Assembly: GCA_964016885.1 (NCBI GenBank)
Contig: OZ024757.1
Coordinates: 43,152,001-43,216,000, forward strand
Direction: 5' to 3'
From: Eledone cirrhosa
Taxonomy: Eukaryota
Length of the DNA: 64,000 bases
The position numbers were made by a program, and so were the translations under genes. Position 1 is the stretch's first letter; every line of letters begins with the position of its first letter. Below, in pieces: positions 23-59,697 of this stretch. The notes under the pieces were generated by a model that saw only the letters and a program-made list of their open reading frames with translations, was not told the DNA's origin and ran no database searches.

Positions 23-1082
23 CTAAGGGCCATCGTTCTTTGCGCATGCGCACAACGGTCCGGCGGCCTTGGTGCATGCGCACTACGGTCCGGCAGCCTT
101 GGCGCATGCGCACTACGGTCCGGCGGCTTTCGTGCATGCGCACTACGGTCTAGCAGCATTGGGGCATGCGCACTACAGCCCGGCGGCCTTGGCGCATGCG
201 CAGTACGGCCCGGCGACCTTGGCGCATGCGCACTACGGTCTGGCGGCCTTGGCGCACGCGCACTACGGTCCGGCGGTCTTGGCGCATGCGCACTACGGTC
301 CGGCGACCTTGTCGCATGCGCACTACGTCCTGGTGGCCTTGGCGCATGCGCAGTACAGTCCAGTGGCCTTGGCGCCTGCGCAGTAAGATTCGGCGGCCAT
401 GGCGCATGCGCACTAAGGGCCAGCGGTCTTTGCGCATGCGCAAAATGGTCCGGCGGCCTTGCCGCATGCACACTACGGCCCGGCGGCCTTGGCGCCTGCG
501 CACTACGGTCCGGCGGCTTTGGTTCATGCGCACTACGGTCTGGCAGCATTGGCGCATGCGCACTACGGTCCGGCGGTCTTGGCGCATGCGCACTACGGTC
601 CGGCGACCTTGCCGCATGCGCACTACATTCCGGTGGCCTTGGCACATGCGCAGTACGGTCCGGTGGCTTTAGCGCATGCGCACTACGGTCTGGCAGACTT
701 GGCGCATGCGCACTACGGTCTGATGGCCTTGGCGCGTGCGCACTACGGTCCGATGGCCTTGGCGCGTGCGCACTACGGTCCAGTGGCCTTGGCGCATGCG
801 CACAACGGTCCGGTGGCCTTGGCGCATGCGCACTACGGTCCGGCAGCTTTGGTGCATGCGCACTACGGTCTGGCAACATTGGCGCATGCGCACTACGGTC
901 CGCGGCCTTGGCGCATGCGCAGTACGGCCCGGCGGCCTTGGCGCATGCGCACTACGGTCTGGCGGCCTTGGCGCATGCGCACTACGTTCCGGCGGCGTTG
1001 GCGCATGCGCACTACGGTTCGGAGGCCTTGGCGCATGCGCACTACGGTCCGACGTCCTTGACGCATGTGCAGTACGGTCCGG

Positions 1083-1348
1083 ATGAATTTTTAGCCATTT
1101 TAAGCCTTTATGTTGCCATATTTAGCCATTTTGAGTTATTTTAGTAATTTATGATGCAGTTTAACCATTTTAGAGCCATTTATAGTCATTTTAGACGTTT
1201 CAGTCGTGTTAGAGTCATTCTAGTCAATTATGATACGGTTTTAGCATTTTATTGTCACTTTAGTCATTTATTATGCCGTCTTAGCCATTTTGTTGTAATT
1301 TCAGACATACATGATGACATTTCGGCCATGTTAGTCCTTTTTGATGAA
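1083..1348 (+). repeat. AT-rich 266-bp spacer, copy 1, subtype A (GATGAA ends)
   Basis: ATGAATTTTTAGCCATTTT...CCTTTTTGATGAA between a forward and a reverse satellite arm. Confidence 0.97.
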
Positions 1349-4300
1349 GTGCCCATGCGCCAAGACCGCCAGACCGTACTGCGCATGCGCCAAGGGCGCC
1401 GGACCGTAGTGCGCATGCGCCAAGGCCGCCTGACTGTACTGCGCATGCGTCAAGGTCGCAGTACCGAACTGCGCATGCGCTAAGGCCGCCGAACCGCATT
1501 GCGCATGCGCCAAGGCCACCTGACTGTACTGCGCATGCGTCAAGGTCGCAGTACCGAACTGCGCATGCGCTAAGGCCGCCGGACCGTACTGCGCATGCGC
1601 CAAGGCCGCCGGACCGTAGTGCGCATGCGCCAAGGCCGCCTGACTGTACTGCGCATGCATCAAGGTCCCAGTACCGTACTGCGCATGCACCAAGGCCACC
1701 AGGACGTAGTGCGCATGCGCCAAGGCCATCGGACCGTAGTGCGCATGCGCCAAGTCTGCCAGACCGTAGTGCGCATGCGCCAAAGCCACCGGACCGTACT
1801 GCGCATGTGCCAAGGCCACCGGAACGTAGTGCGCATGCGGCAAGGTCGCTGGACCGTAGTGCGCATGCGCCAAGACCGACGGTCCGGTGGCTTTGGCGCA
1901 TGCGCACTACGGTCCGGCGTCCTTGGCGCATGTGCAGTACGGTCCGGTGACCTTGGCGCATGCGCACTACGGTCCAGCTGCTTTGGCGCATGCGCAGTAC
2001 GGTTCAGCGGCCTTAGCGCATGCGCACTACGGTCCGGCGGGCTTGGCGCATGTGCAGTATGGTCCGGCGACCTTGACGCATGCGCACTACGGTTCGGCGG
2101 CTCTGGCGCATGCGCACTGCGGTCAGCGGCCTTGGCGCATGCGCACTACGTTCCGGTGGCCTTGGCGCATGCGCAGTACGCTCCAGTGGCCTTGGCGCAT
2201 GCGCAGTAAGGTCCGGCGGCTTTGGCGCATGCGCACTATGGTCTGTCAGTCTTGGCGCATGCGCACTACGGTCCGGCTGCCTTCGTGGATGCGCACTACG
2301 TTCCGGCGGCCTTGCCGCATGCGCACTACGGTCCGGTGGCTTTGGCGCATGCGCACTACGGTCTGGCAGACTTGGCGCATGCGCACTACGGTCCGATGGC
2401 CTTGGCGCATGCGCACTACGGTCTGGCAGCATTGGCGCATGCGCACTACGGTCCGGCGGTCTTGGCGCATGCGCACTACGGTCCGGCGACCTTGCCGCAT
2501 GCGCACTACGTTCCGGTGGCCTTGGCACATGCGCAGTACGGTCCGGTGGCTTTAGCGCATGCGCACTACGGTCTGGCAGACTTGGCGCATGCGCACTACG
2601 GTCCGATGGCCTTGGCGCGTGCGCACTACGGTCCAGTGGCCTTGGCGCATGCGCACAACGGTCCGGCGGCCTTGGCGCATGCGCACTACGGTCCGGCAGC
2701 TTTGGTGCATGCGCACTACGGTCTGGCAGCATTGGCGCATGCGCACTACGGTCCGGCGGCCTTGGCGCATGCGCAGTAAGGTCCGGCGGCCATGGCGCAT
2801 GCGCACTAAGGGCCAGCGGTCTTTGCGCATGCGCACAATGGTACGGCGGCCTTGGCGCATGCGCACTACGTTCCGGTGGCCTTGACGCATGCGCAGTACT
2901 GTCCAGTGGCCTTGGCGCATGCGCAGTAAGGTCCGGCGGCCTTAGCGCATGCGCAGTACGTTCCGGCGGCCTTGGCGCATGCGCACTAAGGGCCATCGTT
3001 CTTTGCGCATGCGCACAACGGTCCGGCGACCTTGCCGCATGCGCACTACGTTCCGGTGGCCTTGGCACATGCGCAGTACGGTCCGGTGGCTTTGGCGCAT
3101 GCGCACTACGGTCTGGCAGACTTGGCGCATGCACACTACGGTCCGATGGCCTTGTCGCATGCGCACTACGTCCTGGTGGCCTTGGCGCATGCGCAGTACA
3201 GTCCAGTGGCCTTGGCGCATGCGCAGTGAGGTCCGGCGGCCTTAGCGCATGCGCAGTAAGGTCCGGCGGCCATGGCGCATGCGCACTAAGGGTCAGCGGT
3301 CTTTGCGCATGCGCACAACGGTCCGGCGGCCTTGGCGCATGCACACTACGGCCCGGCGGCCTTGGCGCCTGCGCACTACGGTCCGGCGGCTTTGGTGCAT
3401 GCGCACTACGGTGTGGCAGCATTGGCGCATGCGCACTACGGTCTGGCAGACTTGGCGCATGCGCACTACGGTCCGATGGCCTTGGCGCGTGCGCACTACG
3501 TTCTGGTGGCCTTGGCGCATGCGCACTACGTTCCGGTGGCCTTTGCGCATGCGCAGTACGGTCCAGCGGCCTTGGCGCATGCGCACAACGTTACGGTGGC
3601 CTTGGCGCATGCGCAGTACTGTCCAGTGGCCTTGGCGCATGCGCAGTAAGGTCCGGCGGCCTTAGCGCATGCGCAGTACGTTCCGGCGGCCTTGGCGCAT
3701 GCGCACTAAGGGCCATCGTTCTTTGCGCATGCGCACAACGGTCCGGCGGCCTTGGTGCATGCGCACTACGGTCCGGCGGCCTTGGCGCATGCGCACTACG
3801 GTCCGGCGGCTTTGGTGCATGCGCACTACGGTCTAGCAGCATTGGGACATGCGCACTACAGCCCGGCGGCCTTGGCGCATGCGCAGTACGGCCCGGCGAC
3901 CTTGGCGCATGCGCACTACGGTCTGGCGGCCTTGGCGCACGCGCACTACGGTCCGGCGGTCTTGGCGCATGCGCACTACGGTCCGGCGACCTTGCCGCAT
4001 GCGCACTACGTTCCGGTGGCCTTGGCACATGCGCAGTACGGTCCGGTGGCTTTGGCGCATGCGCACTACGGTCTGGCAGACTTGGCGCATGCGCACTACG
4101 GTCCGATGGCCTTGGCGCATGCGCACTACGTCCTAGTGGCCTTGGCGCATGCGCAGTACAGTCCACTGGCCTTGGCGCATGCGCACTATGGTCTGTCAGT
4201 CTTGGCGCATGCGCACTACGGTCCGGCTGCCTTCGTGGATGCGCACTACGTTCCGGCGGTCTTGCCGCATGCGCATTACGGTCCGGTGGCTTTGGCGCAT

Positions 4301-6056
4301 GCGCACTACGGTCTGGCAGACTTGGCGCATGCGCACTACGGTCCGATGGCCTTGGCGCATGCGCACTACGGTCTGGCAGCATTGGCGCATGCGCACTACG
4401 GTCCGGCGGTCTTGGCGCATGCGCACTACGGTCCGGCGACCTTGCCGCATGCGCACTACGTTCCGGTGGCCTTGGCACATGCGCAGTACGGTCCGGTGGC
4501 TTTAGCGCATGCGCACTACGGTCTGGCAGACTTGGCGCATGCGCACTACGGTCCGATGGCCTTGGCGCGTGCGCACTACGGTCCAGTGGCCTTGGCGCAT
4601 GCGCACAACGGTCCGGCGGCCTTGGCGCATGCGCACTACGGTCCGGCAGCTTTGGTGCATGCGCACTACGGTCTGGCAGCATTGGCGCATGCGCACTACG
4701 GTCCGGCGGCCTTGGCGCATGCGCAGTAAGGTCCGGCGGCCATGGCGCATGCGCACTAAGGGCCAGCGGTCTTTGCGCATGCGCACAATGGTACGGCGGC
4801 CTTGGCGCATGCGCACTACGTTCCGGTGGCCTTGACGCATGCGCAGTACTGTCCAGTGGCCTTGGCGCATGCGCAGTAAGGTCCGGCGGCCTTAGCGCAT
4901 GCGCAGTACGTTCCGGCGGCCTTGGCGCATGCGCACTAAGGGCCATCGTTCTTTGCGCATGCGCACAACGGTCCGGCGGCCTTGGTGCATGCGCACTACG
5001 GTCCGGCGGCCTTGGCGCATGCGCACTACGGTCCGGCGGCTTTGGTGCATGCGCACTACGGTCTAGCAGCATTGGAGCATGCGCACTACAGCCCGGCGGC
5101 CTTGGCGCATGCGCAGTACGGCCCGGCGACCTTGGCGCATGCGCACTACGGTCTGGCGGCCTTGGCGCACGCGCACTACGGTCCGGCGGTCTTGGCGCAT
5201 GCGCACTACGGTCCGGCGACCTTGCCGCATGCGCACTACGTTCCGGTGGCCTTGGCACATGCGCAGTACGGTCCGGTGGCTTTGGCGCATGCGCACTACG
5301 GTCTGGCAGACTTGGCGCATGCACACTACGGTCCGATGGCCTTGGCGCATGCGCACTACGTCCTGGTGGCCTTGGCGCATGCGCAGTACAGTCCAGTGGC
5401 CTTGGCGCATGCGCAGTGAGGTCCGGCGGCCTTAGCGCATGCGCAGTAAGGTCCGGCGGCCATGGCGCATGCGCACTAAGGGTCAGCGGTCTTTGCGCAT
5501 GCGCACAACGGTCCGGCGGCCTTGGCGCATGCACACTACGGCCCGGCGGCCTTGGCGCCTGCGCACTACGGTCCGGCGGCTTTGGTGCATGCGCACTACG
5601 GTGTGGCAGCATTGGCGCATGCGCACTACGGTCTGGCAGACTTGGCGCATGCGCACTACGGTCCGATGGCCTTGGCGCGTGCGCACTACGTTCTGGTGGC
5701 CTTGGCGCATGCACAGTACGGTCCAGTGGCCTTGGCGCATGCGCACAACGGTCCGGCGGCCTTGGCGCATGCGCACTACGGTCCGTCAGCTTTGGTGCAT
5801 GCGCACTACGGTCTGGCAGCATTGGCGCATGCGCACTACGGTCCGGCGGCCTTGGCGCATGCGCAGTACGGCCCGGTGGCCTTGGCGCATGCGCACTACG
5901 GTCTGGCGGCCTTGGCGCATGCGCACTACGGTCCGGCGGCCTTGGCGCATGCGCACTACGGTCCGGCGGCGTTGGCGCATGCGCACTACGGTTCGGAGGC
6001 CTTGGCGCATGCGCACTACGGTCCGACGTTCTTGACGCATGTGCAGTACGGTCCGG

Positions 6057-6322
6057 ATGACTTTTTAGCCATTTTAAGCCTTTGTGTTGCCATATTTAGC
6101 CATTTTGAGTTATTTTAGTAATTTATGATGCAGTTTAACCATTTTAGAGCCATTTATAGTCATTTTAGACGTTTCAGTCGTGTTAGAGTCATTCTAGTCA
6201 ATTATGATACGGTTTTAGCATTTTATTGTCACTTTAGTCATTTATTATGCCGTCTTAGCCACTTTGTTGTAATTTCAGACATACATGATGACATTTCGGC
6301 CATGTTAGTCCTTTTTGATGAC
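6057..6322 (+). repeat. AT-rich 266-bp spacer, copy 2, subtype C (GATGAC ends)
   Basis: Near-identical to copy 1; diagnostic GATGAC, CTTTGTGTT, GCCACTTTG, GATGACGTG. Confidence 0.97.
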
Positions 6323-8292
6323 GTGCCCATGCGCCAAGACCGCCAGACCGTACTGCGCACGCGTCGATACGGCCTGATCGTAGTGCGCATGCGCCAAAGC
6401 CGCCTAACCGTAGTGCGCATGCGCCAAGGCCGCCGATACATAGTGCACATGCGCCAAGGCCGTCGGACCATACTGCGCATGCGCCAAGGGCGCCGGACAG
6501 TTGTGCGCATGCACCAAGGCCGCCTGACTTACTGCGCATGCGTCAAGGTCGCAGTACCGAACTGCGCATGCGCTAAGGCCTCCGGACCGTACTGCGCATG
6601 CGCCAAGGCCACCTGACTGTACAGCGCATGCGTCAAGGTCGCAGTACCGAACTGCGTATGCGCTAAGGCCGCCGGACCGTACTGCGCATGCGCCAAGGCC
6701 GCCGGACCGTAGTGCGCATGCGCCAAGGCCGCCTGACTGTACTGCGCATGCATCAAAGTCCCAGTACCGTACTGCACATGCACCAAGACCGCCGGACCGT
6801 AGTGCGCATGCGCCAGAGCCGCCGAACCGTAGTGCGCATGCGCCAAGGCCGCCGGACCATACTGCGCATGCGCCAAGGCCGCCGGGCCGTAGTGCGCATG
6901 CGCCAAAGACGCGGGCCCGTAGTGCGCATGCGCCAAGGCCACCTGACTGTACTGCGCATGCGTCAAGGTCGCAGTACTGAACTGCGCATGCGCTAAGGCC
7001 GCCGGACCGTAATGTGCATGCGCCAAGGCCGCCTGACTGTACTGCGCATGCGTCAAGGTCGCAGTACCGAACTGCGCATGCGTTAAGGCCGGCGGCCTTG
7101 GCGCATGCGCACTACGTTCCGGTGGCCTTGACGCATGCGCAGTACTGTCCAGTGGCCTTGGCGCATGCGCAGTAAGGTCCGGCGGCCTTAGCGCATGCGC
7201 AGTACGTTCCGGCGGCCTTGGCGCATGCGCACTAAGGGCCATCGTTCTTTGCGCATGCGCACAACGGTCCGGCGGCCTTGGTGCATGCGCACTACGGTCC
7301 GGCAGCCTTGGCGCATGCGCACTACGGTCCGGCGGCTTTCGTGCATGCGCACTACGGTCTAGCAGCATTGGGGCATGCGCACTACAGCCCGGCGGCCTTG
7401 GCGCATGCGCAGTACGGCCCGGCGACCTTGGCGCATGCGCACTACGGTCTGGCGGCCTTGGCGCACGCGCACTACGGTCCGGCGGTCTTGGCGCATGCGC
7501 ACTACGGTCCGGCGACCTTGTCGCATGCGCACTACGTCCTGGTGGCCTTGGCGCATGCGCAGTACAGTCCAGTGGCCTTGGCGCCTGCGCAGTAAGATCC
7601 GGCGGCCATGGCGCATGCGCACTAAGGGCCAGCGGTCTTTGCGCATGCGCAAAATGGTCCGGCGGCCTTGCCGCATGCACACTACGGCCCGGCGGCTTTG
7701 GCGCCTGCGCACTACGGTCCGGCGGCTTTGGTGCATGCGCACTACGGTCTGGCAGCATTGGCGCATGCGCACTACGGTCCGGCGGTCTTGGCGCATGCGC
7801 ACTACGGTCCGGCGACCTTGCCGCATGCGCACTACATTCCGGTGGCCTTGGCACATGCGCAGTACGGTCCGGTGGCTTTAGCGCATGCGCACTACGGTCT
7901 GGCAGACTTGGCGCATGCGCACTACGGTCTGATGGCCTTGGCGCGTGCGCACTACGGTCCGATGGCCTTGGCGCGTGCGCACTACGGTCCAGTGGCCTTG
8001 GCGCATGCGCACAACGGTCCGGTGGCCTTGGCGCATGCGCACTACGGTCCGGCAGCTTTGGTGCATGCGCACTACGGTCTGGCAACATTGGCGCATGCGC
8101 ACTACGGTCCGGCGGCCTTGGCGCATGCGCAGTACGGCCCGGCGGCCTTGGCGCATGCGCACTACGGTCTGGCGGCCTTGGCGCATGCGCACTACGTTCC
8201 GGCGGCGTTGGCGCATGCGCACTACGGTTCGGAGGCCTTGGCGCATGCGCACTACGGTCCGACGTCCTTGACGCATGTGCAGTACGGTCCGG

Positions 8293-8558
8293 ATGAATTT
8301 TTAGCCATTTTAAGCCTTTATGTTGCCATATTTAGCCATTTTGAGTTATTTTAGTAATTTATGATGCAGTTTAACCATTTTAGAGCCATTTATAGTCATT
8401 TTAGACGTTTCAGTCGTGTTAGAGTCATTCTAGTCAATTATGATACGGTTTTAGCATTTTATTGTCACTTTAGTCATTTATTATGCCGTCTTAGCCATTT
8501 TGTTGTAATTTCAGACATACATGATGACATTTCGGCCATGTTAGTCCTTTTTGATGAA
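8293..8558 (+). repeat. AT-rich spacer, copy 3, subtype A
   Basis: Matches copy 1. Confidence 0.97.
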
Positions 8559-10409
8559 GTGCCCATGCGCCAAGACCGCCAGACCGTACTGCGCATGCGC
8601 CAAGGGCGCCGGACCGTAGTGCGCATGCGCCAAGGCCGCCTGACTGTACTGCGCATGCGTCAAGGTCGCAGTACCGAACTGCGCATGCGCTAAGGCCTCC
8701 GGACCGTACTGCGCATGCGCCAAGGCCACCTGACTGTACAGCGCATGCGTCAAGGTCGCAGTACCGAACTGCGTATGCGCTAAGGCCGCCGGACCGTACT
8801 GCGCATGCGCCAAGGCCGCCGGACCGTAGTGCGCATGCGCCAAGGCCGCCTGACTGTACTGCGCATGCATCAAAGTCCCAGTACCGTACTGCACATGCAC
8901 CAAGACCGCCGGACCGTAGTGCGCATGCGCCAGAGCCGCCGAACCGTAGTGCGCATGCGCCAAGGCCGCCGGACCATACTGCGCATGCGCCAAGGCCGCC
9001 GGGCCGTAGTGCGCATGCGCCAAAGACGCGGGCCCGTAGTGCGCATGCGCCAAGGCCACCTGACTGTACTGCGCATGCGTCAAGGTCGCAGTACTGAACT
9101 GCGCATGCGCTAAGGCCGCCGGACCGTAATGTGCATGCGCCAAGGCCGCCTGACTGTACTGCGCATGCGTCAAGGTCGCAGTACCGAACTGCGCATGCGT
9201 TAAGGCCGGCGGCCTTGGCGCATGCGCACTACGTTCCGGTGGCCTTGACGCATGCGCAGTACTGTCCAGTGGCCTTGGCGCATGCGCAGTAAGGTCCGGC
9301 GGCCTTAGCGCATGCGCAGTACGTTCCGGCGGCCTTGGCGCATGCGCACTAAGGGCCATCGTTCTTTGCGCATGCGCACAACGGTCCGGCGGCCTTGGTG
9401 CATGCGCACTACGGTCCGGCAGCCTTGGCGCATGCGCACTACGGTCCGGCGGCTTTCGTGCATGCGCACTACGGTCTAGCAGCATTGGGGCATGCGCACT
9501 ACAGCCCGGCGGCCTTGGCGCATGCGCAGTACGGCCCGGCGACCTTGGCGCATGCGCACTACGGTCTGGCGGCCTTGGCGCACGCGCACTACGGTCCGGC
9601 GGTCTTGGCGCATGCGCACTACGGTCCGGCGACCTTGTCGCATGCGCACTACGTCCTGGTGGCCTTGGCGCATGCGCAGTACAGTCCAGTGGCCTTGGCG
9701 CCTGCGCAGTAAGATCCGGCGGCCATGGCGCATGCGCACTAAGGGCCAGCGGTCTTTGCGCATGCGCAAAATGGTCCGGCGGCCTTGCCGCATGCACACT
9801 ACGGCCCGGCGGCCTTGGCGCCTGCGCACTACGGTCCGGCGGCTTTGGTGCATGCGCACTACGGTCTGGCAGCATTGGCGCATGCGCACTACGGTCCGGC
9901 GGTCTTGGCGCATGCGCACTACGGTCCGGCGACCTTGCCGCATGCGCACTACATTCCGGTGGCCTTGGCACATGCGCAGTACGGTCCGGTGGCTTTAGCG
10001 CATGCGCACTACGGTCTGGCAGACTTGGCGCATGCGCACTACGGTCTGATGGCCTTGGCGCGTGCGCACTACGGTCCGATGGCCTTGGCGCGTGCGCACT
10101 ACGGTCCAGTGGCCTTGGCGCATGCGCACAACGGTCCGGTGGCCTTGGCGCATGCGCACTACGGTCCGGCAGCTTTGGTGCATGCGCACTACGGTCTGGC
10201 AACATTGGCGCATGCGCACTACGGTCCGGCGGCCTTGGCGCATGCGCAGTACGGCCCGGCGGCCTTGGCGCATGCGCACTACGGTCTGGCGGCCTTGGCG
10301 CATGCGCACTACGTTCCGGCGGCGTTGGCGCATGCGCACTACGGTTCGGAGGCCTTGGCGCATGCGCACTACGGTCCGACGTCCTTGACGCATGTGCAGT
10401 ACGGTCCGG

Positions 10410-10675
10410 ATGAATTTTTAGCCATTTTAAGCCTTTATGTTGCCATATTTAGCCATTTTGAGTTATTTTAGTAATTTATGATGCAGTTTAACCATTTTAG
10501 AGCCATTTATAGTCATTTTAGACGTTTCAGTCGTGTTAGAGTCATTCTAGTCAATTATGATACGGTTTTAGCATTTTATTGTCACTTTAGTCATTTATTA
10601 TGCCGTCTTAGCCATTTTGTTGTAATTTCAGACATACATGATGACATTTCGGCCATGTTAGTCCTTTTTGATGAA
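10410..10675 (+). repeat. AT-rich spacer, copy 4, subtype A
   Basis: Matches copy 1. Confidence 0.97.
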
Positions 10676-16600: not shown

Positions 16601-17698
16601 ATGCGCACAACGGTCCGGCGGCCTTGGTGCATGCGCACTACGGTCCGGCGGCCTTGGCGCATGCGCACTACGGTCCGGCGGCTTTGGTGCATGCGCACTA
16701 CGGTCTAGCAGCATTGGAGCATGCGCACTACAGCCCGGCGGCCTTGGCGCATGCGCAGTACGGCCCGGCGACCTTGGCGCATGCGCACTACGGTCTGGCG
16801 GCCTTGGCGCACGCGCACTACGGTCCGGCGGTCTTGGCGCATGCGCACTACGGTCCGGCGACCTTGCCGCATGCGCACTACGTTCCGGTGGCCTTGGCAC
16901 ATGCGCAGTACGGTCCGGTGGCTTTGGCGCATGCGCACTACGGTCTGGCAGACTTGGCGCATGCACACTACGGTCCGATGGCCTTGGCGCATGCGCACTA
17001 CGTCCTGGTGGCCTTGGCGCATGCGCAGTACAGTCCAGTGGCCTTGGCGCATGCGCAGTGAGGTCCGGCGGCCTTAGCGCATGCGCAGTAAGGTCCGGCG
17101 GCCATGGCGCATGCGCACTAAGGGTCAGCGGTCTTTGCGCATGCGCACAACGGTCCGGCGGCCTTGGCGCATGCACACTACGGCCCGGCGGCCTTGGCGC
17201 CTGCGCACTACGGTCCGGCGGCTTTGGTGCATGCGCACTACGGTGTGGCAGCATTGGCGCATGCGCACTACGGTCTGGCAGACTTGGCGCATGCGCACTA
17301 CGGTCCGATGGCCTTGGCGCGTGCGCACTACGTTCTGGTGGCCTTGGCGCATGCACAGTACGGTCCAGTGGCCTTGGCGCATGCGCACAACGGTCCGGCG
17401 GCCTTGGCGCATGCGCACTACGGTCCGTCAGCTTTGGTGCATGCGCACTACGGTCTGGCAGCATTGGCGCATGCGCACTACGGTCCGGCGGCCTTGGCGC
17501 ATGCGCAGTACGGCCCGGTGGCCTTGGCGCATGCGCACTACGGTCTGGCGGCCTTGGCGCATGCGCACTACGGTCCGGCGGCCTTGGCGCATGCGCACTA
17601 CGGTCCGGCGGCGTTGGCGCATGCGCACTACGGTTCGGAGGCCTTGGCGCATGCGCACTACGGTCCGACGTTCTTGACGCATGTGCAGTACGGTCCGG

Positions 17699-17964
17699 AT
17701 GACTTTTTAGCCATTTTAAGCCTTTGTGTTGCCATATTTAGCCATTTTGAGTTATTTTAGTAATTTATGATGCAGTTTAACCATTTTAGAGCCATTTATA
17801 GTCATTTTAGACGTTTCAGTCGTGTTAGAGTCATTCTAGTCAATTATGATACGGTTTTAGCATTTTATTGTCACTTTAGTCATTTATTATGCCGTCTTAG
17901 CCACTTTGTTGTAATTTCAGACATACATGATGACATTTCGGCCATGTTAGTCCTTTTTGATGAC
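17699..17964 (+). repeat. AT-rich spacer, copy 5, subtype C
   Basis: Matches copy 2. Confidence 0.97.
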
Positions 17965-18224: not shown

Positions 18225-21200
18225 CGGACCGTACTGCGCATGCGCCAAGGCCACCTGACTGTACAGCGCATGCGTCAAGGTCGCAGTACCGAACTGCGTA
18301 TGCGCTAAGGCCGCCGGACCGTACTGCGCATGCGCCAAGGCCGCCGGACCGTAGTGCGCATGCGCCAAGGCCGCCTGACTGTACTGCGCATGCATCAAAG
18401 TCCCAGTACCGTACTGCACATGCACCAAGACCGCCGGACCGTAGTGCGCATGCGCCAGAGCCGCCGAACCGTAGTGCGCATGCGCCAAGGCCGCCGGACC
18501 ATACTGCGCATGCGCCAAGGCCGCCGGGCCGTAGTGCGCATGCGCCAAAGACGCGGGCCCGTAGTGCGCATGCGCCAAGGCCACCTGACTGTACTGCGCA
18601 TGCGTCAAGGTCGCAGTACTGAACTGCGCATGCGCTAAGGCCGCCGGACCGTAATGTGCATGCGCCAAGGCCGCCTGACTGTACTGCGCATGCGTCAAGG
18701 TCGCAGTACCGAACTGCGCATGCGTTAAGGCCGGCGGCCTTGGCGCATGCGCACTACGTTCCGGTGGCCTTGACGCATGCGCAGTACTGTCCAGTGGCCT
18801 TGGCGCATGCGCAGTAAGGTCCGGCGGCCTTAGCGCATGCGCAGTACGTTCCGGCGGCCTTGGCGCATGCGCACTAAGGGCCATCGTTCTTTGCGCATGC
18901 GCACAACGGTCCGGCGGCCTTGGTGCATGCGCACTACGGTCCGGCAGCCTTGGCGCATGCGCACTACGGTCCGGCGGCTTTCGTGCATGCGCACTACGGT
19001 CTAGCAGCATTGGGGCATGCGCACTACAGCCCGGCGGCCTTGGCGCATGCGCAGTACGGCCCGGCGACCTTGGCGCATGCGCACTACGGTCTGGCGGCCT
19101 TGGCGCACGCGCACTACGGTCCGGCGGTCTTGGCGCATGCGCACTACGGTCCGGCGACCTTGTCGCATGCGCACTACGTCCTGGTGGCCTTGGCGCATGC
19201 GCAGTACAGTCCAGTGGCCTTGGCGCCTGCGCAGTAAGATCCGGCGGCCATGGCGCATGCGCACTAAGGGCCAGCGGTCTTTGCGCATGCGCAAAATGGT
19301 CCGGCGGCCTTGCCGCATGCACACTACGGCCCGGCGGCCTTGGCGCCTGCGCACTACGGTCCGGCGGCTTTGGTGCATGCGCACTACGGTCTGGCAGCAT
19401 TGGCGCATGCGCACTACGGTCCGGCGGTCTTGGCGCATGCGCACTACGGTCCGGCGACCTTGCCGCATGCGCACTACATTCCGGTGGCCTTGGCACATGC
19501 GCAGTACGGTCCGGTGGCTTTAGCGCATGCGCACTACGGTCTGGCAGACTTGGCGCATGCGCACTACGGTCTGATGGCCTTGGCGCGTGCGCACTACGGT
19601 CCGATGGCCTTGGCGCGTGCGCACTACGGTCCAGTGGCCTTGGCGCATGCGCACAACGGTCCGGTGGCCTTGGCGCATGCGCACTACGGTCCGGCAGCTT
19701 TGGTGCATGCGCACTACGGTCTGGCAACATTGGCGCATGCGCACTACGGTCCGGCGGCCTTGGCGCATGCGCAGTACGGCCCGGCGGCCTTGGCGCATGC
19801 GCACTACGGTCTGGCGGCCTTGGCGCATGCGCACTACGTTCCGGCGGCGTTGGCGCATGCGCACTACGGTTCGGAGGCCTTGGCGCATGCGCACTACGGT
19901 CCGACGTCCTTGACGCATGTGCAGTACGGTCCGGATGAATTTTTAGCCATTTTAAGCCTTTATGTTGCCATATTTAGCCATTTTGAGTTATTTTAGTAAT
20001 TTATGATGCAGTTTAACCATTTTAGAGCCATTTATAGTCATTTTAGACGTTTCAGTCGTGTTAGAGTCATTCTAGTCAATTATGATACGGTTTTAGCATT
20101 TTATTGTCACTTTAGTCATTTATTATGCCGTCTTAGCCATTTTGTTGTAATTTCAGACATACATGATGACATTTCGGCCATGTTAGTCCTTTTTGATGAA
20201 GTGCCCATGCGCCAAGACCGCCAGACCGTACTGCGCATGCGCCAAGGGCGCCGGACCGTAGTGCGCATGCGCCAAGGCCGCCTGACTGTACTGCGCATGC
20301 GTCAAGGTCGCAGTACCGAACTGCGCATGCGCTAAGGCCGCCGAACCGCACTGCGCATGCGCCAAGGCCACCTGACTGTACTGCGCATGCGTCAAGGTCG
20401 CAGTACCGAACTGCGCATGCGCTAAGGCCGCCGGACCGTACTGCGCATGCGCCAAGGCCGCCGGACCGTAGTGCGCATGCGCCAAGGCCGCCTGACTGTA
20501 CTGCGCATGCATCAAGGTCCCAGTACCGTACTGCGCATGCACCAAGGCCACCAGGACGTAGTGCGCATGCGCCAAGGCCATCGGACCGTAGTGCGCATGC
20601 GCCAAGTCTGCCAGACCGTAGTGCGCATGCGCCAAAGCCACCGGACCGTACTGCGCATGTGCCAAGGCCACCGGAACGTAGTGCGCATGCGGCAAGGTCG
20701 CTGGACCGTAGTGCGCATGCGCCAAGACCGACGGTCCGGTGGCTTTGGCGCATGCGCACTACGGTCCGGCGTCCTTGGCGCATGTGCAGTACGGTCCGGT
20801 GACCTTGGCGCATGCGCACTACGGTCCAGCTGCTTTGGCGCATGCGCAGTACGGTTCAGCGGCCTTAGCGCATGCGCACTACGGTCCGGCGGGCTTGGCG
20901 CATGTGCAGTATGGTCCGGCGACCTTGACGCATGCGCACTACGGTTCGGCGGCTCTGGCGCATGCGCACTGCGGTCAGCGGCCTTGGCGCATGCGCACTA
21001 CGTTCCGGTGGCCTTGGCGCATGCGCAGTACGCTCCAGTGGCCTTGGCGCATGCGCAGTAAGGTCCGGCGGCTTTGGCGCATGCGCACTATGGTCTGTCA
21101 GTCTTGGCGCATGCGCACTACGGTCCGGCTGCCTTCGTGGATGCGCACTACGTTCCGGCGGCCTTGCCGCATGCGCACTACGGTCCGGTGGCTTTGGCGC

Positions 21201-22885: not shown

Positions 22886-24338
22886 CAGTACGGTCCGGTG
22901 GCTTTGGCGCATGCGCACTACGGTCTGGCAGACTTGGCGCATGCGCACTACGGTCCGATGGCCTTGGCGCATGCGCACTACGTCCTAGTGGCCTTGGCGC
23001 ATGCGCAGTACAGTCCACTGGCCTTGGCGCATGCGCAGTAAGGTCCGGCGGCCTTAGCGCATGCGCAGTAAGGTCCGACGGCCATGGCGCATGCGCACTA
23101 AGGGCCAGCGGTCTTTGCGAATGCGCACAACGGTACGGCGGCCTTGGCGCATGCGCACTACGTTCCGGTGGCCTTGACGCATGCGCAGTACTGTCCAGTG
23201 GCCTTGGCGCATGCGCAGTAAGGTCCGGCGACCTTAGCGCATGCGCAGTACGTTCCGGCGGCCTTGGCGCATGCGCACTAAGGGCCATCGTTCTTTGCGC
23301 ATGCGCACAACGGTCCGGCGGCCTTGGTGCATGCGCACTACGGTCCGGCGGCCTTGGCGCATGCGCACTACGGTCCGGCGGCTTTGGTACATGCGCACTA
23401 CGGTCTAGCAGCATTGGGGCATGCGCACTACAGCCCGGCGGCCTTGGCGCATGCGCAGTACGGCCCGGCGACCTTGGCGCATGCGCACTACGGTCTGGCG
23501 GCCTTGGCGCACGCGCACTACGGTCCGGCGGTCTTGGCGCATGCGCACTACGGTCCGGCGACCTTGTCGCATGCGCACTACGTCCTGGTGGCCTTGGCGC
23601 ATGCGCAGTACAGTCCAGTGGCCTTGGCGCCTGCGCAGTAAGATCCGGCGGCCATGGCGCATGCGCACTAAGGGCCAGCGGTCTTTGCGCATGCGCAAAA
23701 TGGTCCGGCGGCCTTGCCGCATGCACACTACGGCCCGGCGGCCTTGGCGCCTGCGCACTACGGTCCGGCGGCTTTGGTGCATGCGCACTACGGTCTGGCA
23801 GCATTGGCGCATGCGCACTACGGTCCGGCGGTCTTGGCGCATGCGCACTACGGTCCGGCGACCTTGCCGCATGCGCACTACATTCCGGTGGCCTTGGCAC
23901 ATGCGCAGTACGGTCCGGTGGCTTTAGCGCATGCGCACTACGGTCTGGCAGACTTGGCGCATGCGCACTACGGTCTGATGGCCTTGGCGCGTGCGCACTA
24001 CGGTCCGATGGCCTTGGCGCGTGCGCACTACGGTCCAGTGGCCTTGGCGCATGCGCACAACGGTCCGGTGGCCTTGGCGCATGCGCACTACGGTCCGGCA
24101 GCTTTGGTGCATGCGCACTACGGTCTGGCAACATTGGCGCATGCGCACTACGGTCCGGCGGCTTTGGCGCATGCGCAGTACGGCCCGGCGGCCTTGGCGC
24201 ATGCGCACTACGGTCTGGCGGCCTTGGCGCATGCGCACTACGTTCCGGCGGCGTTGGCGCATGCGCACTACGGTTCGGAGGCCTTGGCGCATGCGCACTA
24301 CGGTCCGACGTCCTTGACGCATGTGCAGTACGGTCCGG

Positions 24339-24604
24339 ATGAATTTTTAGCCATTTTAAGCCTTTATGTTGCCATATTTAGCCATTTTGAGTTATTTTAG
24401 TAATTTATGATGCAGTTTAACCATTTTAGAGCCATTTATAGTCATTTTAGACGTTTCAGTCGTGTTAGAGTCATTCTAGTCAATTATGATACGGTTTTAG
24501 CATTTTATTGTCACTTTATTCATTTATTATGCCGTCTTAGCCATTTTGTTGTAATTTCAGACATACATGATGACATTTCGGCCATGTTAGTCCTTTTTGA
24601 TGAA
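24339..24604 (+). repeat. AT-rich spacer, copy 7, subtype A
   Basis: Matches copy 1 except private CACTTTATTCATT. Confidence 0.97.
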
Positions 24605-27600: not shown

Positions 27601-28953
27601 TAGTGGCCTTGGCGCATGCGCAGTACAGTCCACTGGCCTTGGCGCATGCGCAGTAAGGTCCGGCGGCCTTAGCGCATGCGCAGTAAGGTCCGACGGCCAT
27701 GGCGCATGCGCACTAAGGGCCAGCGGTCTTTGCGAATGCGCACAACGGTACGGCGGCCTTGGCGCATGCGCACTACGTTCCGGTGGCCTTGACGCATGCG
27801 CAGTACTGTCCAGTGGCCTTGGCGCATGCGCAGTAAGGTCCGGCGACCTTAGCGCATGCGCAGTACGTTCCGGCGGCCTTGGCGCATGCGCACTAAGGGC
27901 CATCGTTCTTTGCGCATGCGCACAACGGTCCGGCGGCCTTGGTGCATGCGCACTACGGTCCGGCGGCCTTGGCGCATGCGCACTACGGTCCGGCGGCTTT
28001 GGTGCATGCGCACTACGGTCTAGCAGCATTGGGGCATGCGCACTACAGCCCGGCGGCCTTGGCGCATGCGCAGTACGGCCCGGCGACCTTGGCGCATGCG
28101 CACTACGGTCTGGCGGCCTTGGCGCACGCGCACTACGGTCCGGCGGTCTTGGCGCATGCGCACTACGGTCCGGCGACCTTGTCGCATGCGCACTACGTCC
28201 TGGTGGCCTTGGCGCATGCGCAGTACAGTCCAGTGGCCTTGGCGCCTGCGCAGTAAGATCCGGCGGCCATGGCGCATGCGCACTAAGGGCCAGCGGTCTT
28301 TGCGCATGCGCAAAATGGTCCGGCGGCCTTGCCGCATGCACACTACGGCCCGGCGGCCTTGGCGCCTGCGCACTACGGTCCGGCGGCTTTGGTGCATGCG
28401 CACTACGGTCTGGCAGCATTGGCGCATGCGCACTACGGTCCGGCGGTCTTGGCGCATGCGCACTACGGTCCGGCGACCTTGCCGCATGCGCACTACATTC
28501 CGGTGGCCTTGGCACATGCGCAGTACGGTCCGGTGGCTTTAGCGCATGCGCACTACGGTCTGGCAGACTTGGCGCATGCGCACTACGGTCTGATGGCCTT
28601 GGCGCGTGCGCACTACGGTCCGATGGCCTTGGCGCGTGCGCACTACGGTCCAGTGGCCTTGGCGCATGCGCACAACGGTCCGGTGGCCTTGGCGCATGCG
28701 CACATCGGTCCGGCAGCTTTGGTGCATGCGCACTACGGTCTGGCAACATTGGCGCATGCGCACTACGGTCCGGCGGCCTTGGCGCATGCGCAGTACGGCC
28801 CGGCGGCCTTGGCGCATGCGCACTACGGTCTGGCGGCCTTGGCGCATGCGCACTACGTTCCGGCGGCGTTGGCGCATGCGCACTACGGTTCGGAGGCCTT
28901 GGCGCATGCGCACTACGGTCCGACGTCCTTGACGCATGTGCAGTACGGTCCGG

Positions 28954-29219
28954 ATGAATTTTTAGCCATTTTAAGCCTTTATGTTGCCATATTTAGCCAT
29001 TTTGAGTTATTTTAGTAATTTATGATGCAGTTTAACCATTTTAGAGCCATTTATAGTCATTTTAGACGTTTCAGTCGTGTTAGAGTCATTCTAGTCAATT
29101 ATGATACGGTTTTAGCATTTTATTGTCACTTTAGTCATTTATTATGCCGTCTTAGTCATTTTGTTCTAATTTCAGACATACATGATGACATTTCGGCCAT
29201 GTTAGTCCTTTTTGATGAA
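28954..29219 (+). repeat. AT-rich spacer, copy 8, subtype A
   Basis: Matches copy 1 with variants CTTAGTCATT and TTGTTCTAAT. Confidence 0.97.
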
Positions 29220-31978
29220 GTGCCCATGCGCCAAGACCGCCAGACCGTACTGCGCATGCGCCAAGGGCGCCGGACCGTAGTGCGCATGCGCCAAGGCCGC
29301 CTGACTGTACTGCGCATGCGTCAAGGTCGCAGTACCGAACTGCGCATGCGCTAAGGCCGCCGAACCGCACTGCGCATGCGCCAAGGCCACCTGACTGTAC
29401 TGCGCATGCGTCAAGGTCGCAGTACCGAACTGCGCATGCGCTAAGGCCGCCGGACCGTACTGCGCATGCGCCAAGGCCGCCGGACCGTAGTGCGCATGCG
29501 CCAAGGCCGCCTGACTGTACTGCGCATGCATCAAGGTCCCAGTACCGTACTGCGCATGCACCAAGGCCACCAGGACGTAGTGCGCATGCGCCAAGGCCAT
29601 CGGACCGTAGTGCGCATGCGCCAAGTCTGCCAGACCGTAGTGCGCATGCGCCAAAGCCACCGGACCGTACTGCGCATGTGCCAAGGCCACCGGAACGTAG
29701 TGCGCATGCGGCAAGGTCGCTGGACCGTAGTGCGCATGCGCCAAGACCGACGGTCCGGTGGCTTTGGCGCATGCGCACTACGGTCCGGCGTCCTTGGCGC
29801 ATGTGCAGTACGGTCCGGTGACCTTGGCGCATGCGCACTACGGTCCAGCTGCTTTGGCGCATGCGCAGTACGGTTCAGCGGCCTTAGCGCATGCGCACTA
29901 CGGTCCGGCGGGCTTGGCGCATGTGCAGTATGGTCCGGCGACCTTGACGCATGCGCACTACGGTTCGGCGGCTCTGGCGCATGCGCACTGCGGTCCGGCG
30001 GCCCTGGCGCATGCGCACTACGTTCCGGTGGCCTTGGCGCATGCGCAGTACGCTCCAGTGGCCTTGGCGCATGCGCAGTAAGGTCCGGCGGCTTTGGCGC
30101 ATGCGCACTATGGTCTGTCAGTCTTGGCGCATGAGCACTACGGTCCGGCTGCCTTCGTGGATGCGCACTACGTTCCGGCGGCCTTGCCGCATGCGCACTA
30201 CGGTCCGGTGGCTTTGGCGCATGCGCACTACGGTCTGGCAGACTTGGCGCATGCGCACTACGGTCCGATGGCCTTGGCGCATGCGCACTACGGTCTGGCA
30301 GCATTGGCGCATGCGCACTACGGTCCGGCGGTCTTGGCGCATGCGCACTACGGTCCGGCGACCTTGCCGCATGCGCACTACGTTCCGGTGGCCTTGGCAC
30401 ATGCGCAGTACGGTCCGGTGGCTTTAGCGCATGCGCACTACGGTCTGGCAGACTTGGCGCATGCGCACTACGGTCCGATGGCCTTGGCGCGTGCGCACTA
30501 CGGTCCAGTGGCCTTGGCGCATGCGCACAACGGTCCGGCGGCCTTGGCGCATGCGCACTACGGTCCGGCAGCTTTGGTGCATGCGCACTACGGTCTGGCA
30601 GCATTGGCGCATGCGCACTACGGTCCGGCGGCCTTGGCGCATGCGCAGTAAGGTCCGGCGGCCATGGCGCATGCGCACTAAGGGCCAGCGGTCTTTGCGC
30701 ATGCGCACAATGGTACGGCGGCCTTGGCGCATGCGCACTACGTTCCGGTGGCCTTGACGCATGCGCAGTACTGTCCAGTGGCCTTGGCGCATGCGCAGTA
30801 AGGTCCGGCGGCCTTAGCGCATGCGCAGTACGTTCCGGCGGCCTTGGCGCATGCGCACTAAGGGCCATCGTTCTTTGCGCATGCGCACAACGGTCCGGCG
30901 GCCTTGGTGCATGCGCACTACGGTCCGGCGGCCTTGGCGCATGCGCACTACGGTCCGGCGGCTTTGGTGCATGCGCACTACGGTCTAGCAGCATTGGAGC
31001 ATGCGCACTACAGCCCGGCGGCCTTGGCGCATGCGCAGTACGGCCCGGCGACCTTGGCGCATGCGCACTACGGTCTGGCGGCCTTGGCGCACGCGCACTA
31101 CGGTCCGGCGGTCTTGGCGCATGCGCACTACGGTCCGGCGACCTTGCCGCATGCGCACTACGTTCCGGTGGCCTTGGCACATGCGCAGTACGGTCCGGTG
31201 GCTTTGGCGCATGCGCACTACGGTCTGGCAGACTTGGCGCATGCACACTACGGTCCGATGGCCTTGGCGCATGCGCACTACGTCCTGGTGGCCTTGGCGC
31301 ATGCGCAGTACAGTCCAGTGGCCTTGGCGCATGCGCAGTGAGGTCCGGCGGCCTTAGCGCATGCGCAGTAAGGTCCGGCGGCCATGGCGCATGCGCACTA
31401 AGGGTCAGCGGTCTTTGCGCATGCGCACAACGGTCCGGCGGCCTTGGCGCATGCACACTACGGCCCGGCGGCCTTGGCGCCTGCGCACTACGGTCCGGCG
31501 GCTTTGGTGCATGCGCACTACGGTGTGGCAGCATTGGCGCATGCGCACTACGGTCTGGCAGACTTGGCGCATGCGCACTACGGTCCGATGGCCTTGGCGC
31601 GTGCGCACTACGTTCTGGTGGCCTTGGCGCATGCACAGTACGGTCCAGTGGCCTTGGCGCATGCGCACAACGGTCCGGCGGCCTTGGCGCATGCGCACTA
31701 CGGTCCGGCAGCTTTGGTGCATGCGCACTACGGTCTGGCAGCATTGGCGCATGCGCACTACGGTCCGGCGGCCTTGGCGCATGCGCAGTACGGCCCGGTG
31801 GCCTTGGCGCATGCGCACTACGGTCTGGCGGCCTTGGCGCATGCGCACTACGGTCCGGCGGCCTTGGCGCATGCGCACTACGGTCCGGCGGCGTTGGCGC
31901 ATGCGCACTACGGTTCGGAGGCCTTGGCGCATGCGCACTACGGTCCGACGTTCTTGACGCATGTGCAGTACGGTCCGG

Positions 31979-32244
31979 ATGACTTTTTAGCCATTTTAAG
32001 CCTTTGTGTTGCCATATTTAGCCATTTTGAGTTATTTTAGTAATTTATGATGCAGTTTAACCATTTTAGAGCCATTTATAGTCATTTTAGACGTTTCAGT
32101 CGTGTTAGAGTCATTCTAGTCAATTATGATACGGTTTTAGCATTTTATTGTCACTTTAGTCATTTATTATGCCGTCTTAGCCACTTTGTTGTAATTTCAG
32201 ACATACATGATGACATTTCGGCCATGTTAGTCCTTTTTGATGAC
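31979..32244 (+). repeat. AT-rich spacer, copy 9, subtype C
   Basis: Matches copy 2. Confidence 0.97.
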
Positions 32245-34214
32245 GTGCCCATGCGCCAAGACCGCCAGACCGTACTGCGCACGCGTCGATACGGCCTGAT
32301 CGTAGTGCGCATGCGCCAAAGCCGCCTAACCGTAGTGCGCATGCGCCAAGGCCGCCGATACATAGTGCACATGCGCCAAGGCCGTCGGACCATACTGCGC
32401 ATGCGCCAAGGGCGCCGGACAGTTGTGCGCATGCACCAAGGCCGCCTGACTTACTGCGCATGCGTCAAGGTCGCAGTACCGAACTGCGCATGCGCTAAGG
32501 CCTCCGGACCGTACTGCGCATGCGCCAAGGCCACCTGACTGTACTGCGCATGCGTCAAGGTCGCAGTACCGAACTGCGTATGCGCTAAGGCCGCCGGACC
32601 GTACTGCGCATGCGCCAAGGCCGCCGGACCGTAGTGCGCATGCGCCAAGGCCGCCTGACTGTACTGCGCATGCATCAAAGTCCCAGTACCGTACTGCACA
32701 TGCACCAAGACCGCCGGACCGTAGTGCGCATGCGCCAGAGCCGCCGAACCGTAGTGCGCATGCGCCAAGGCCGCCGGACCATACTGCGCATGCGCCAAGG
32801 CCGCCGGGCCGTAGTGCGCATGCGCCAAAGACGCGGGCCCGTAGTGCGCATGCGCCAAGGCCACCTGACTGTACTGCGAGTGCGTCAAGGTCGCAGTACT
32901 GAACTGCGCATGCGCTAAGGCCGCCGGACCGTAATGTGCATGCGCCAAGGCCGCCTGACTGTACTGCGCATGCGTCAAGGTCGCAGTACCGAACTGCGCA
33001 TGCGTTAAGGCCGGCGGCCTTGGCGCATGCGCACTACGTTCCGGTGGCCTTGACGCATGCGCAGTACTGTCCAGTGGCCTTGGCGCATGCGCAGTAAGGT
33101 CCGGCGGCCTTAGCGCATGCGCAGTACGTTCCGGCGGCCTTGGCGCATGCGCACTAAGGGCCATCGTTCTTTGCGCATGCGCACAACGGTCCGGCGGCCT
33201 TGGTGCATGCGCACTACGGTCCGGCAGCCTTGGCGCATGCGCACTACGGTCCGGCGGCTTTGGTGCATGCGCACTACGGTCTAGCAGCATTGGGGCATGC
33301 GCACTACAGCCCGGCGGCCTTGGCGCATGCGCAGTACGGCCCGGCGACCTTGGCGCATGCGCACTACGGTCTGGCGGCCTTGGCGCACGCGCACTACGGT
33401 CCGGCGGTCTTGGCGCATGCGCACTACGGTCCGGCGACCTTGTCGCATGCGCACTACGTCCTGGTGGCCTTGGCGCATGCGCAGTACAGTCCAGTGGCCT
33501 TGGCGCCTGCGCAGTAAGATCCGGCGGCCATGGCGCATGCGCACTAAGGGCCAGCGGTCTTTGCGCATGCGCAAAATGGTCCGGCGGCCTTGCCGCATGC
33601 ACACTACGGCCCGGCGGCCTTGGCGCCTGCGCACTACGGTCCGGCGGCTTTGGTGCATGCGCACTACGGTCTGGCAGCATTGGCGCATGCGCACTACGGT
33701 CCGGCGGTCTTGGCGCATGCGCACTACGGTCCGGCGACCTTGCCGCATGCGCACTACATTCCGGTGGCCTTGGCACATGCGCAGTACGGTCCGGTGGCTT
33801 TAGCGCATGCGCACTACGGTCTGGCAGACTTGGCGCATGCGCACTACGGTCTGATGGCCTTGGCGCGTGCGCACTACGGTCCGATGGCCTTGGCGCGTGC
33901 GCACTACGGTCCAGTGGCCTTGGCGCATGCGCACAACGGTCCGGTGGCCTTGGCGCATGCGCACTACGGTCCGGCAGCTTTGGTGCATGCGCACTACGGT
34001 CTGGCAACATTGGCGCATGCGCACTACGGTCCGGCGGCCTTGGCGCATGCGCAGTACGGCCCGGCGGCCTTGGCGCATGCGCACTACGGTCTGGCGGCCT
34101 TGGCGCATGCGCACTACGTTCCGGCGGCGTTGGCGCATGCGCACTACGGTTCGGAGGCCTTGGCGCATGCGCACTACGGTCCGACGTCCTTGACGCATGT
34201 GCAGTACGGTCCGG

Positions 34215-34480
34215 ATGAATTTTTAGCCATTTTAAGCCTTTATGTTGCCATATTTAGCCATTTTGAGTTATTTTAGTAATTTATGATGCAGTTTAACCAT
34301 TTTAGAGCCATTTATAGTCATTTTAGACGTTTCAGTCGTGTTAGAGTCATTCTAGTCAATTATGATACGGTTTTAGCATTTTATTGTCACTTTAGTCATT
34401 TATTATGCCGTCTTAGCCATTTTGTTGTAATTTCAGACATACATGATGACATTTCGGCCATGTTAGTCCTTTTTGATGAA
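34215..34480 (+). repeat. AT-rich spacer, copy 10, subtype A
   Basis: Matches copy 1. Confidence 0.97.
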
Positions 34481-37400: not shown

Positions 37401-38649
37401 AATGCGCACAACGGTACGGCGGCCTTGGCGCATGCGCACTACGTTCCGGTGGCCTTGACGCATGCGCAGTACTGTCCAGTGGCCTTGGCGCATGCGCAGT
37501 AAGGTCCGGCGACCTTAGCGCATGCGCAGTAAGGTCCGGCGACCTTAGCGCATGCGCAGTACGTTCCGGCGGCCTTGGCGCATGCGCACTAAGGGCCATC
37601 GTTCTTTGCGCATGCGCACAACGGTCCGGCGGCCTTGGTGCATGCGCACTACGGTCCGGCGGCCTTGGCGCATGCGCACTACGGTCCGGCGGCTTTGGTA
37701 CATGCGCACTACGGTCTAGCAGCATTGGGGCATGCGCACTACAGCCCGGCGGCCTTGGCGCATGCGCAGTACGGCCCGGCGACCTTGGCGCATGCGCACT
37801 ACGGTCTGGCGGCCTTGGCGCACGCGCACTACGGTCCGGCGGTCTTGGCGCATGCGCACTACGGTCCGGCGACCTTGTCGCATGCGCACTACGTCCTGGT
37901 GGCCTTGGCGCATGCGCAGTACAGTCCAGTGGCCTTGGCGCCTGCGCAGTAAGATCCGGCGGCCATGGCGCATGCGCACTAAGGGCCAGCGGTCTTTGCG
38001 CATGCGCAAAATGGTCCGGCGGCCTTGCCGCATGCACACTACGGCCCGGCGGCCTTGGCGCCTGCGCACTACGGTCCGGCGGCTTTGGTGCATGCGCACT
38101 ACGGTCTGGCAGCATTGGCGCATGCGCACTACGGTCCGGCGGTCTTGGCGCATGCGCACTACGGTCCGGCGACCTTGCCGCATGCGCACTACATTCCGGT
38201 GGCCTTGGCACATGCGCAGTACGGTCCGGTGGCTTTAGCGCATGCGCACTACGGTCTGGCAGACTTGGCGCATGCGCACTACGGTCTGATGGCCTTGGCG
38301 CGTGCGCACTACGGTCCGATGGCCTTGGCGCGTGCGCACTACGGTCCAGTGGCCTTGGCGCATGCGCACAACGGTCCGGTGGCCTTGGCGCATGCGCACT
38401 ACGGTCCGGCAGCTTTGGTGCATGCGCACTACGGTCTGGCAACATTGGCGCATGCGCACTACGGTCCGGCGGCCTTGGCGCATGCGCAGTACGGCCCGGC
38501 GGCCTTGGCGCATGCGCACTACGGTCTGGCGGCCTTGGCGCATGCGCACTACGTTCCGGCGGCGTTGGCGCATGCGCACTACGGTTCGGAGGCCTTGGCG
38601 CATGCGCACTACGGTCCGACGTCCTTGACGCATGTGCAGTACGGTCCGG

Positions 38650-38915
38650 ATGAATTTTTAGCCATTTTAAGCCTTTATGTTGCCATATTTAGCCATTTTG
38701 AGTTATTTTAGTAATTTATGATGCAGTTTAACCATTTTAGAGCCATTTATAGTCATTTTAGACGTTTCAGTCGTGTTAGAGTCATTCTAGTCAATTATGA
38801 TACGGTTTTAGCATTTTATTGTCACTTTAGTCATTTATTATGCCGTCTTAGCCATTTTGTTGTAATTTCAGACATACATGATGACATTTCGGCCATGTTA
38901 GTCCTTTTTGATGAA
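38650..38915 (+). repeat. AT-rich spacer, copy 11, subtype A
   Basis: Matches copy 1. Confidence 0.97.
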
Positions 38916-41044: not shown

Positions 41045-41310
41045 ATGACTTTTTAGCCATTTTAAGCCTTTGTGTTGCCATATTTAGCCATTTTGAGTTA
41101 TTTTAGTAATTTATGATGCAGTTTAACCATTTTAGAGCCATTTATAGTCATTTTAGACGTTTCAGTCGTGTTAGAGTCATTCTAGTCAATTATGATACGG
41201 TTTTAGCATTTTATTGTCACTTTAGTCATTTATTATGCCGTCTTAGCCACTTTGTTGTAATTTCAGACATACATGATGACATTTCGGCCATGTTAGTCCT
41301 TTTTGATGAC
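41045..41310 (+). repeat. AT-rich spacer, copy 12, subtype C
   Basis: Matches copy 2. Confidence 0.97.
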
Positions 41311-44371: not shown

Positions 44372-44604
44372 CCATATTTAGCCATTTTGAGTTATTTTAG
44401 TAATTTATGATGCAGTTTAACCATTTTAGAGCCATTTATAGTCATTTTAGACGTTTCAGTCGTGTTAGAGTCATTCTAGTCAATTATGATACGGTTTTAG
44501 CATTTTATTGTCACTTTAGTCATTTATTATGCCGTCTTAGCCATTTTGTTGTAATTTCAGACATACATGATGACATTTCGGCCATGTTAGTCCTTTTTGA
44601 TGAC
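44372..44604 (+). repeat. AT-rich spacer, copy 13, left-truncated (~33 bp lost)
   Basis: Satellite CAGTACAGT-CCA joins directly to CCATATTTAGCC; right end GATGAC. Confidence 0.95.
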
Positions 44605-59641: not shown

Positions 59642-59697
59642 CCATATTTAGCCATTTTGAGTTATTTTAGTAATTTATGATGCAGTTTAACCATTTT
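59642..59697 (+). repeat. AT-rich spacer remnant, copy 17 (56 bp, truncated both sides)
   Basis: CCATATTTAGCCATTTTGAGTTATTTTAGTAATTTATGATGCAGTTTAACCATTTT followed by CAAGGCC of the reverse arm. Confidence 0.95.

Follow-up and report, generated by a model that had tools for sequence, protein, structure and literature searches.

The closest known counterparts of the structure described here are the macro-dyad arrays of Tribolium freemani and T. madens (PMC12581902, PMC13081366) and, in the excerpted text of the second of these papers, satellite macro-dyad symmetries are documented only in Tribolium (PMC13081366). As the excerpts present them, the Tribolium arrays have opposite kilobase-sized subarrays, few types of conserved inversion segment that are copied often, and a cassette-like mode of spread, all of which they have in common with the DNA analysed here, a stretch of 64,000 nt (the window) that is one satellite array throughout, with alternating kilobase-sized subarrays and conserved inversion segments. 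If the window comes from a genus other than Tribolium, the range of macro-dyad symmetries would be widened. The monomer here is a GC-rich 30-mer, unlike those of Tribolium, and the likeness drawn here is one of array layout. Moreover, the inversion segments of Tribolium TfSat01 are described in the same excerpts (PMC12581902, PMC13081366) as having no extraneous sequence, whereas the main turn here holds a 267-bp foreign minisatellite with direct hexamers.

Other systems, again as described in excerpts of the cited papers, resemble parts of this arrangement. Tetris, a foldback transposon of Drosophila virilis (PMC4079207), likewise has inverted arms of tandem repeats and a non-coding middle, and has expanded into satellite arrays; unlike in Tetris, there is here no flanking domain, no terminal inverted repeat in register and no outer target-site duplication, and a direct repeat lies at the ends of the middle piece. 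Cryptons (PMC3212892), for which a circular intermediate has been proposed, and Replitrons (PMC10288648) likewise carry short direct repeats at each end, but here no coding partner is seen in the window, there is one insertion site, inverted binding arms are absent and the ends are dispensable. A further parallel is with microDNA and small eccDNA with flanking direct repeats of 2-15 bp (PMC8414719), in that a short segment between the two copies of a 6-bp direct repeat could be lost as a small circle, although the window has neither a deletion scar nor a circle junction. A search of the literature, with most subscription papers outside its scope, found the monomer motifs in no paper and no description of this satellite or of the structure.

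Layout of the array and its spacers

The window comprises about 1,980 copies of the GC-rich 30-bp monomer, whose orientation alternates over 42 blocks, and identical turns recur along it. BLAST within the window located an AT-rich spacer that interrupts the array 18 times (15 intact and three truncated copies); each of the 18 is the site of a turn from a forward to a reverse block, with inverted flanks in 18/18. Three further forward-to-reverse turns have no spacer, and GATGA is absent within 40 nt of them. The features are as follows (positions in the window, strand, description).

27..1081, +: left arm, forward GC-rich 30-bp satellite array
1082..1348, +: spacer of subtype A, 267 bp, 31% GC; a minisatellite, now decayed, whose seven units of 30-41 bp are built on a T-tract sub-repeat of 10 bp
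1082..1087, +: left hexamer GATGAA, where unit 1 starts; the initial G is readable as satellite too
1082..1111, +: unit 1, 30 bp; it and unit 7 are each other's best match
1313..1318, +: third GATGAC, internal, start of unit 7; invariant in both subtypes
1313..1342, +: unit 7, 30 bp; 23/30 identity to unit 1
1343..1348, +: right hexamer GATGAA, where an eighth unit starts; the final A equals the satellite consensus (position 29 is T in 1858/1987 monomers)
1349..1885, -: right arm, in the form of subtype A, with 18 satellite monomers in inverted orientation
1910..1969, +: sister of the left terminal monomer, then a rare monomer whose beginning (1946-1951) is similar to the left hexamer; eight copies in the window
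6056..6322, +: spacer of subtype C; its right arm is the subtype A arm plus four monomers
6323..8291, no strand assigned: 1969-bp satellite block between a C spacer and an A spacer; three copies, flanking hexamers discordant
8292..8558, +: spacer A; right arm changes to C type between +76 and +140
10409..10675, +: spacer A
17698..17964, +: spacer C
19934..20200, +: spacer A
24338..24604, +: spacer A
28953..29219, +: spacer A
31978..32244, +: spacer C
34214..34480, +: spacer A
38649..38915, +: spacer A
41044..41310, +: spacer C
44372..44604, +: truncated spacer, positions 35-267; left hexamer absent, right end C
50172..50428, +: spacer C with a 10-bp internal deletion
52486..52752, -: spacer C, inverted
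55511..55777, -: spacer A, inverted
59642..59697, +: spacer remnant, positions 35-90, without hexamer
63564..63619, +: second copy of the hexamer-less remnant

Turns from reverse to forward are of two recurrent types (1881-1885 and 7086-7098, with their repeats), found after A arms and after C arms, respectively, and identical across copies, a likeness to the conserved inversion types of Tribolium satellites. A higher-order repeat extends over 6056-41310 in C-A-A(-A) cassette groups, with C spacers spaced 11.6, 14.3 and 9.1 kb apart; past ~41 kb the array shows more rearrangement, with a segment in inverted orientation (52486-55777). In all three truncated spacers (44372, 59642, 63564) the left break is at position 35, where three bases of microhomology exist with a variant of the satellite monomer.

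End hexamers and the two spacer clades

As reported in the preliminary description, which had drawn attention to a direct repeat GATGA(A/C) that co-varies between the two spacer ends, the spacer at 1082 begins and ends with GATGAA (1082-1087, 1343-1348) and the one at 6056 with GATGAC (6056-6061, 6317-6322), and the two ends agree in all 15 intact spacers. Nine of these have GATGAA and six GATGAC, and there is an inverted copy among each type. The hexamer is a motif native to the spacer. All 47 GATGA sites of the window lie within spacers, three per intact copy, and none of the 47 in the 30-bp satellite; the third site, GATGAC at spacer position 232, is unchanged in the 16/16 copies that cover this position. 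The spacer is a decayed minisatellite with periods of 10 and 40-41 bp, in which a GATG-like motif begins each of seven units; this unit-start motif is found at spacer positions 1, 31, 72, ~112, 151, 191, 232 and 262, the last being the right hexamer, with which an eighth unit begins. Of 6328 random pairs of start and end at least 150 bp apart within the spacer, only 14 have the same 6-mer at both ends, and matching ends are therefore no trivial accident of composition. T-tracts recur in the spacer about every 10 bp (20 runs in 1082-1348), a spacing that we take to be the pattern expected of bent DNA. A base-calling artefact was considered and rejected: the internal motif is never read as GATGAA, and on both strands there are independent variants to which the end bases are linked.

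Between the copies at 1082 (A) and 6056 (C) there are four differences, at spacer positions 6, 29, 207 and 267, the C-type base at position 207 being present in only 5/6 C copies. In a tree built from the spacer with 67 bp to its left and 200 bp to its right, and with both end bases masked, the A (nine) and C (six) copies are separated on a single branch with support 100/100, the length of which is inflated by an arm deletion, and the A/C difference needs one change. Near-identical left flanks extend over 174-6348 bp within A, compared to 151-204 bp between A and C, and the near-identical right flank between the two types is 37 bp. A set of C spacer, 1969-bp block and A spacer recurs three times, and hence A and C are paralogues in a higher-order repeat. 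Since the 15 copies make up two clades, their concordance is a single contrast, not fifteen, which cautions that agreement among 15 copies can stem from one event. The caveat originally attached to the co-variation, that it involves two haplotypes and could come from linked SNPs, thus proves correct and is the main explanation, given the two clades in the masked tree and the type-private kilobase flanks. There is one clear A/C arm switch in ~23 kb (copy 8292, +76 to +140), for which the expected number of discordant spacers is 0.17 and P(0) = 0.84, a rough estimate that counts the clear arm switch alone. The A right arm equals the C right arm minus four monomers. The second monomer of the C right arm (6353-6382 and equivalents) is the most decayed near the spacer (8-9 mismatches, compared to a mean of 3.1) and is among the four that subtype A lacks.

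Junctions and origin of the spacer

We consider it probable, though well short of certain, that the matching ends reflect an internal minisatellite motif at both breakpoints together with linkage within a single paralogue split. Where the GC-rich 30-bp satellite array folds back, a piece of an AT-rich 10/40-bp minisatellite would have been captured once, with both breakpoints at the unit-start motif GATGAC, leaving a direct hexamer at each end, and with the left breakpoint probably at a microhomology with a rare satellite monomer. The cassette of arm, spacer and inverted arm would then have been duplicated into paralogues C, with the ancestral ends, and A, with two C-to-A changes and the four-monomer arm deletion, and multi-kilobase duplications would have subsequently multiplied the C and A cassettes; the ends would co-vary because they lie 261 bp apart on one haplotype, and the paired C-to-A changes would be coincidental. 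Read in this most likely way, the locus would be a modest example of satellite arrays acquiring and spreading a conserved inversion point.

The same terminal monomers are found at 15/15 left and 16/16 right junctions in the window. The start of the right arm occurs 16 times, every time after a hexamer, and the end of the left arm (with at most one mismatch) 23 times, of which 15 are before a hexamer and eight in the sister monomer; sharing of the two junctions implies a single insertion ancestor. The sister (eight copies) has two mismatches to the left terminal monomer and is the only other monomer with both rare variants T11 and T24 (8/23). The monomer that follows it starts like the C hexamer, with a one-base slip, and the 4-mer that it has in common with the hexamer is present at that monomer position in 9/1987 monomers, eight of them directly after the sister. 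This suggests that the left break was guided by microhomology and also that the C ends are ancestral, in agreement with the internal GATGAC and with an A right arm that is the C arm less four monomers. The A base at the right end, being equal to the satellite consensus, may be satellite-templated.

The spacer had been proposed to be a 261-bp unit or circle whose hexamer was duplicated on insertion, or else to be bounded by an excision signal. A target-site duplication copies bases of the target and leaves co-linear flanks. With a satellite that lacks the hexamer, flanks that are inverted and not co-linear, and shared terminal monomers, duplication of a satellite target site is not supported. 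A duplication renewed per insertion is likewise not supported, as all copies have the identical two junctions, and one made once cannot cause a later joint change of both ends. An excision signal also lacks support, the 64-kb window having no empty turn, with or without hexamer, and neither end-to-start joins nor tandem spacers (0 of each); three deletion breakpoints (positions 35 and 90, and the internal 10-bp loss) all lie away from the hexamers, and the hexamer-less remnant was itself duplicated (59642, 63564).

The part of that proposal that does fit is a one-time ring origin, in which a ring or tandem unit of 261 bp would have been opened a single time, by a staggered break at the hexamer, and the spacer, as one turn of it, joined with a fragment of satellite, with the A/C co-variation arising later by linkage; we regard this as possible but doubtful. 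Units 1 and 7, the only 30-bp units, are mutual best matches (23/30; score 16.0, with 6.0 the next best for either), and hence would be adjacent tandem sisters across the join. The end-to-start join does keep the 10-bp rhythm, as had been claimed, ranking 4 of 49 unit-start joins and equalling the best of six native junctions, a measure that is weakly discriminating, and the scarcity of random end pairs with a common 6-mer also favours a ring. Sister units and an in-rhythm join are not predicted by capture of a plain fragment. However, the window has no join or tandem spacers, other offsets within the spacer reach as high an identity as 23/30 (24/30 at lag 79), the sister satellite monomer accounts for most of the left hexamer, and opening a ring once leaves the co-variation unexplained.

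Against the capture of a minisatellite fragment also stand the one-base slip that the microhomology match requires and the paired change at the ends. C>A makes up 36/105 recent single-step changes in the array, which speaks for the capture of a fragment. Under the array mutation spectrum, two of 3-4 spacer substitutions are expected to hit the paired hexamer position with an identical change with a probability of 2.9-5.8 x 10^-4, rising to 1.2-2.4% when every repeated pair of 6-mers is admitted, whereas a model of renewed duplication expects a hexamer difference 5-8% of the time; the test is post hoc, the finding having been chosen from a scan. No donor locus was seen within the 64 kb examined. 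Because of the low chance of a coincident paired change, we keep as an unlikely alternative a templated or re-integration mechanism that actively renewed the match, with a 261-bp circle of which two alleles each integrated at the same turn, or with one hexamer templating the other's base after GATGA by transient primer misalignment. The altered base is exactly that 3' of the shared pentamer, and the arm stem would bring the spacer ends together: the arms fold back strongly (-150.8 kcal/mol, z -13.7) and the spacer alone weakly (about -8 kcal/mol), so that the spacer would be a loop of ~270 nt, which we infer may stabilise the inverted array. The preferred fold, however, leaves the hexamers outside the stem and not paired together. 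For integration to occur twice, an empty turn would have to be broken in the same way both times, and such a turn has 0 matches in the window; the third GATGAC is never altered (16/16); published short-range template switching, in the excerpts seen, concerns inverted repeats or nearby templates; and n = 1. It is very unlikely, in our view, that the AT-rich unit of 261 bp goes through a small circular form and enters the fixed satellite turn again and again, its hexamer being re-duplicated at each entry, which would make it a mobile, site-specific spacer without coding content and a builder of fold-back satellite cassettes. If true, this would offer a directly testable example of a satellite shaped by the re-integration of circles, a process called hypothetical in the excerpted text of PMC4079207.

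Identification of the spacer as a non-autonomous Crypton- or Replitron-like element, with the hexamer as its recombination or transposition signal, strikes us as highly improbable. The spacer has short terminal direct repeats within the 4-6 bp of Cryptons, for which the excerpts also give the proposed circular intermediate, but it occupies a single insertion site and folds weakly, inverted arms of 11-13 bp about a 6-8 bp core are not visible by eye in the junctions (the arms are out of register by 9 nt), duplication went on in remnants that lack hexamers, and the window has no non-repetitive coding sequence. Just as improbable is the converse, that the inverted satellite block is a foldback transposon inserted in an AT-rich repeat, with the hexamers as its target-site duplication. 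The hexamer is native to the AT-rich sequence and the block arms are tandem repeats in inverted orientation, like those of Tetris; against this, the block termini do not form in-register inverted repeats (11/30 at offset 0, with the best at offsets 9 and 39), the hexamers around one block agree in only 5/13 pairs and are discordant around the thrice-repeated 1969-bp block, and Tetris duplications are given in the excerpt as 8-10 bp.

Source and content of the array

Judged from the size of the array, its source looks eukaryotic. A prokaryotic or viral origin was rejected. A search of 185,579 bacterial and archaeal genomes with three spaced monomer cores returned five loci, of which 0/5 match the spacer; these were set aside as unrelated short repeats, one of them (L003) being only 69-78% identical to the satellite, over at most 120 bp. 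Plasmid and phage collections gave no match to the window sequence, Rfam on 900-1600 a single chance-level match (19.5 bits, compared to a cut-off of 52), and the window has no tRNA genes. A coding role was likewise rejected: the 69 long open frames are on both strands and in several frames, and variation modulo 3 (0.15/0.10/0.12) gives no coding signal.

Monomer positions 19-27 form a palindromic core that varies by 1-7% per position, compared to 10-28% at positions 1-13 (285 distinct monomers), and retains CpGs; it presumably resembles an NRF1-type palindrome. Selection or palindrome-templated repair are possible reasons for conservation of the core. In the literature search, the core motif combined with satellite terms matched one paper, on human Robertsonian chromosomes. 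Three of the bacterial loci (L001:4991-5081, L003:4-134 and L005:4947-5103) are 30-bp tandem repeats of 3-5 copies with the same palindromic core, a sharing that is probably coincidental given the search pattern.
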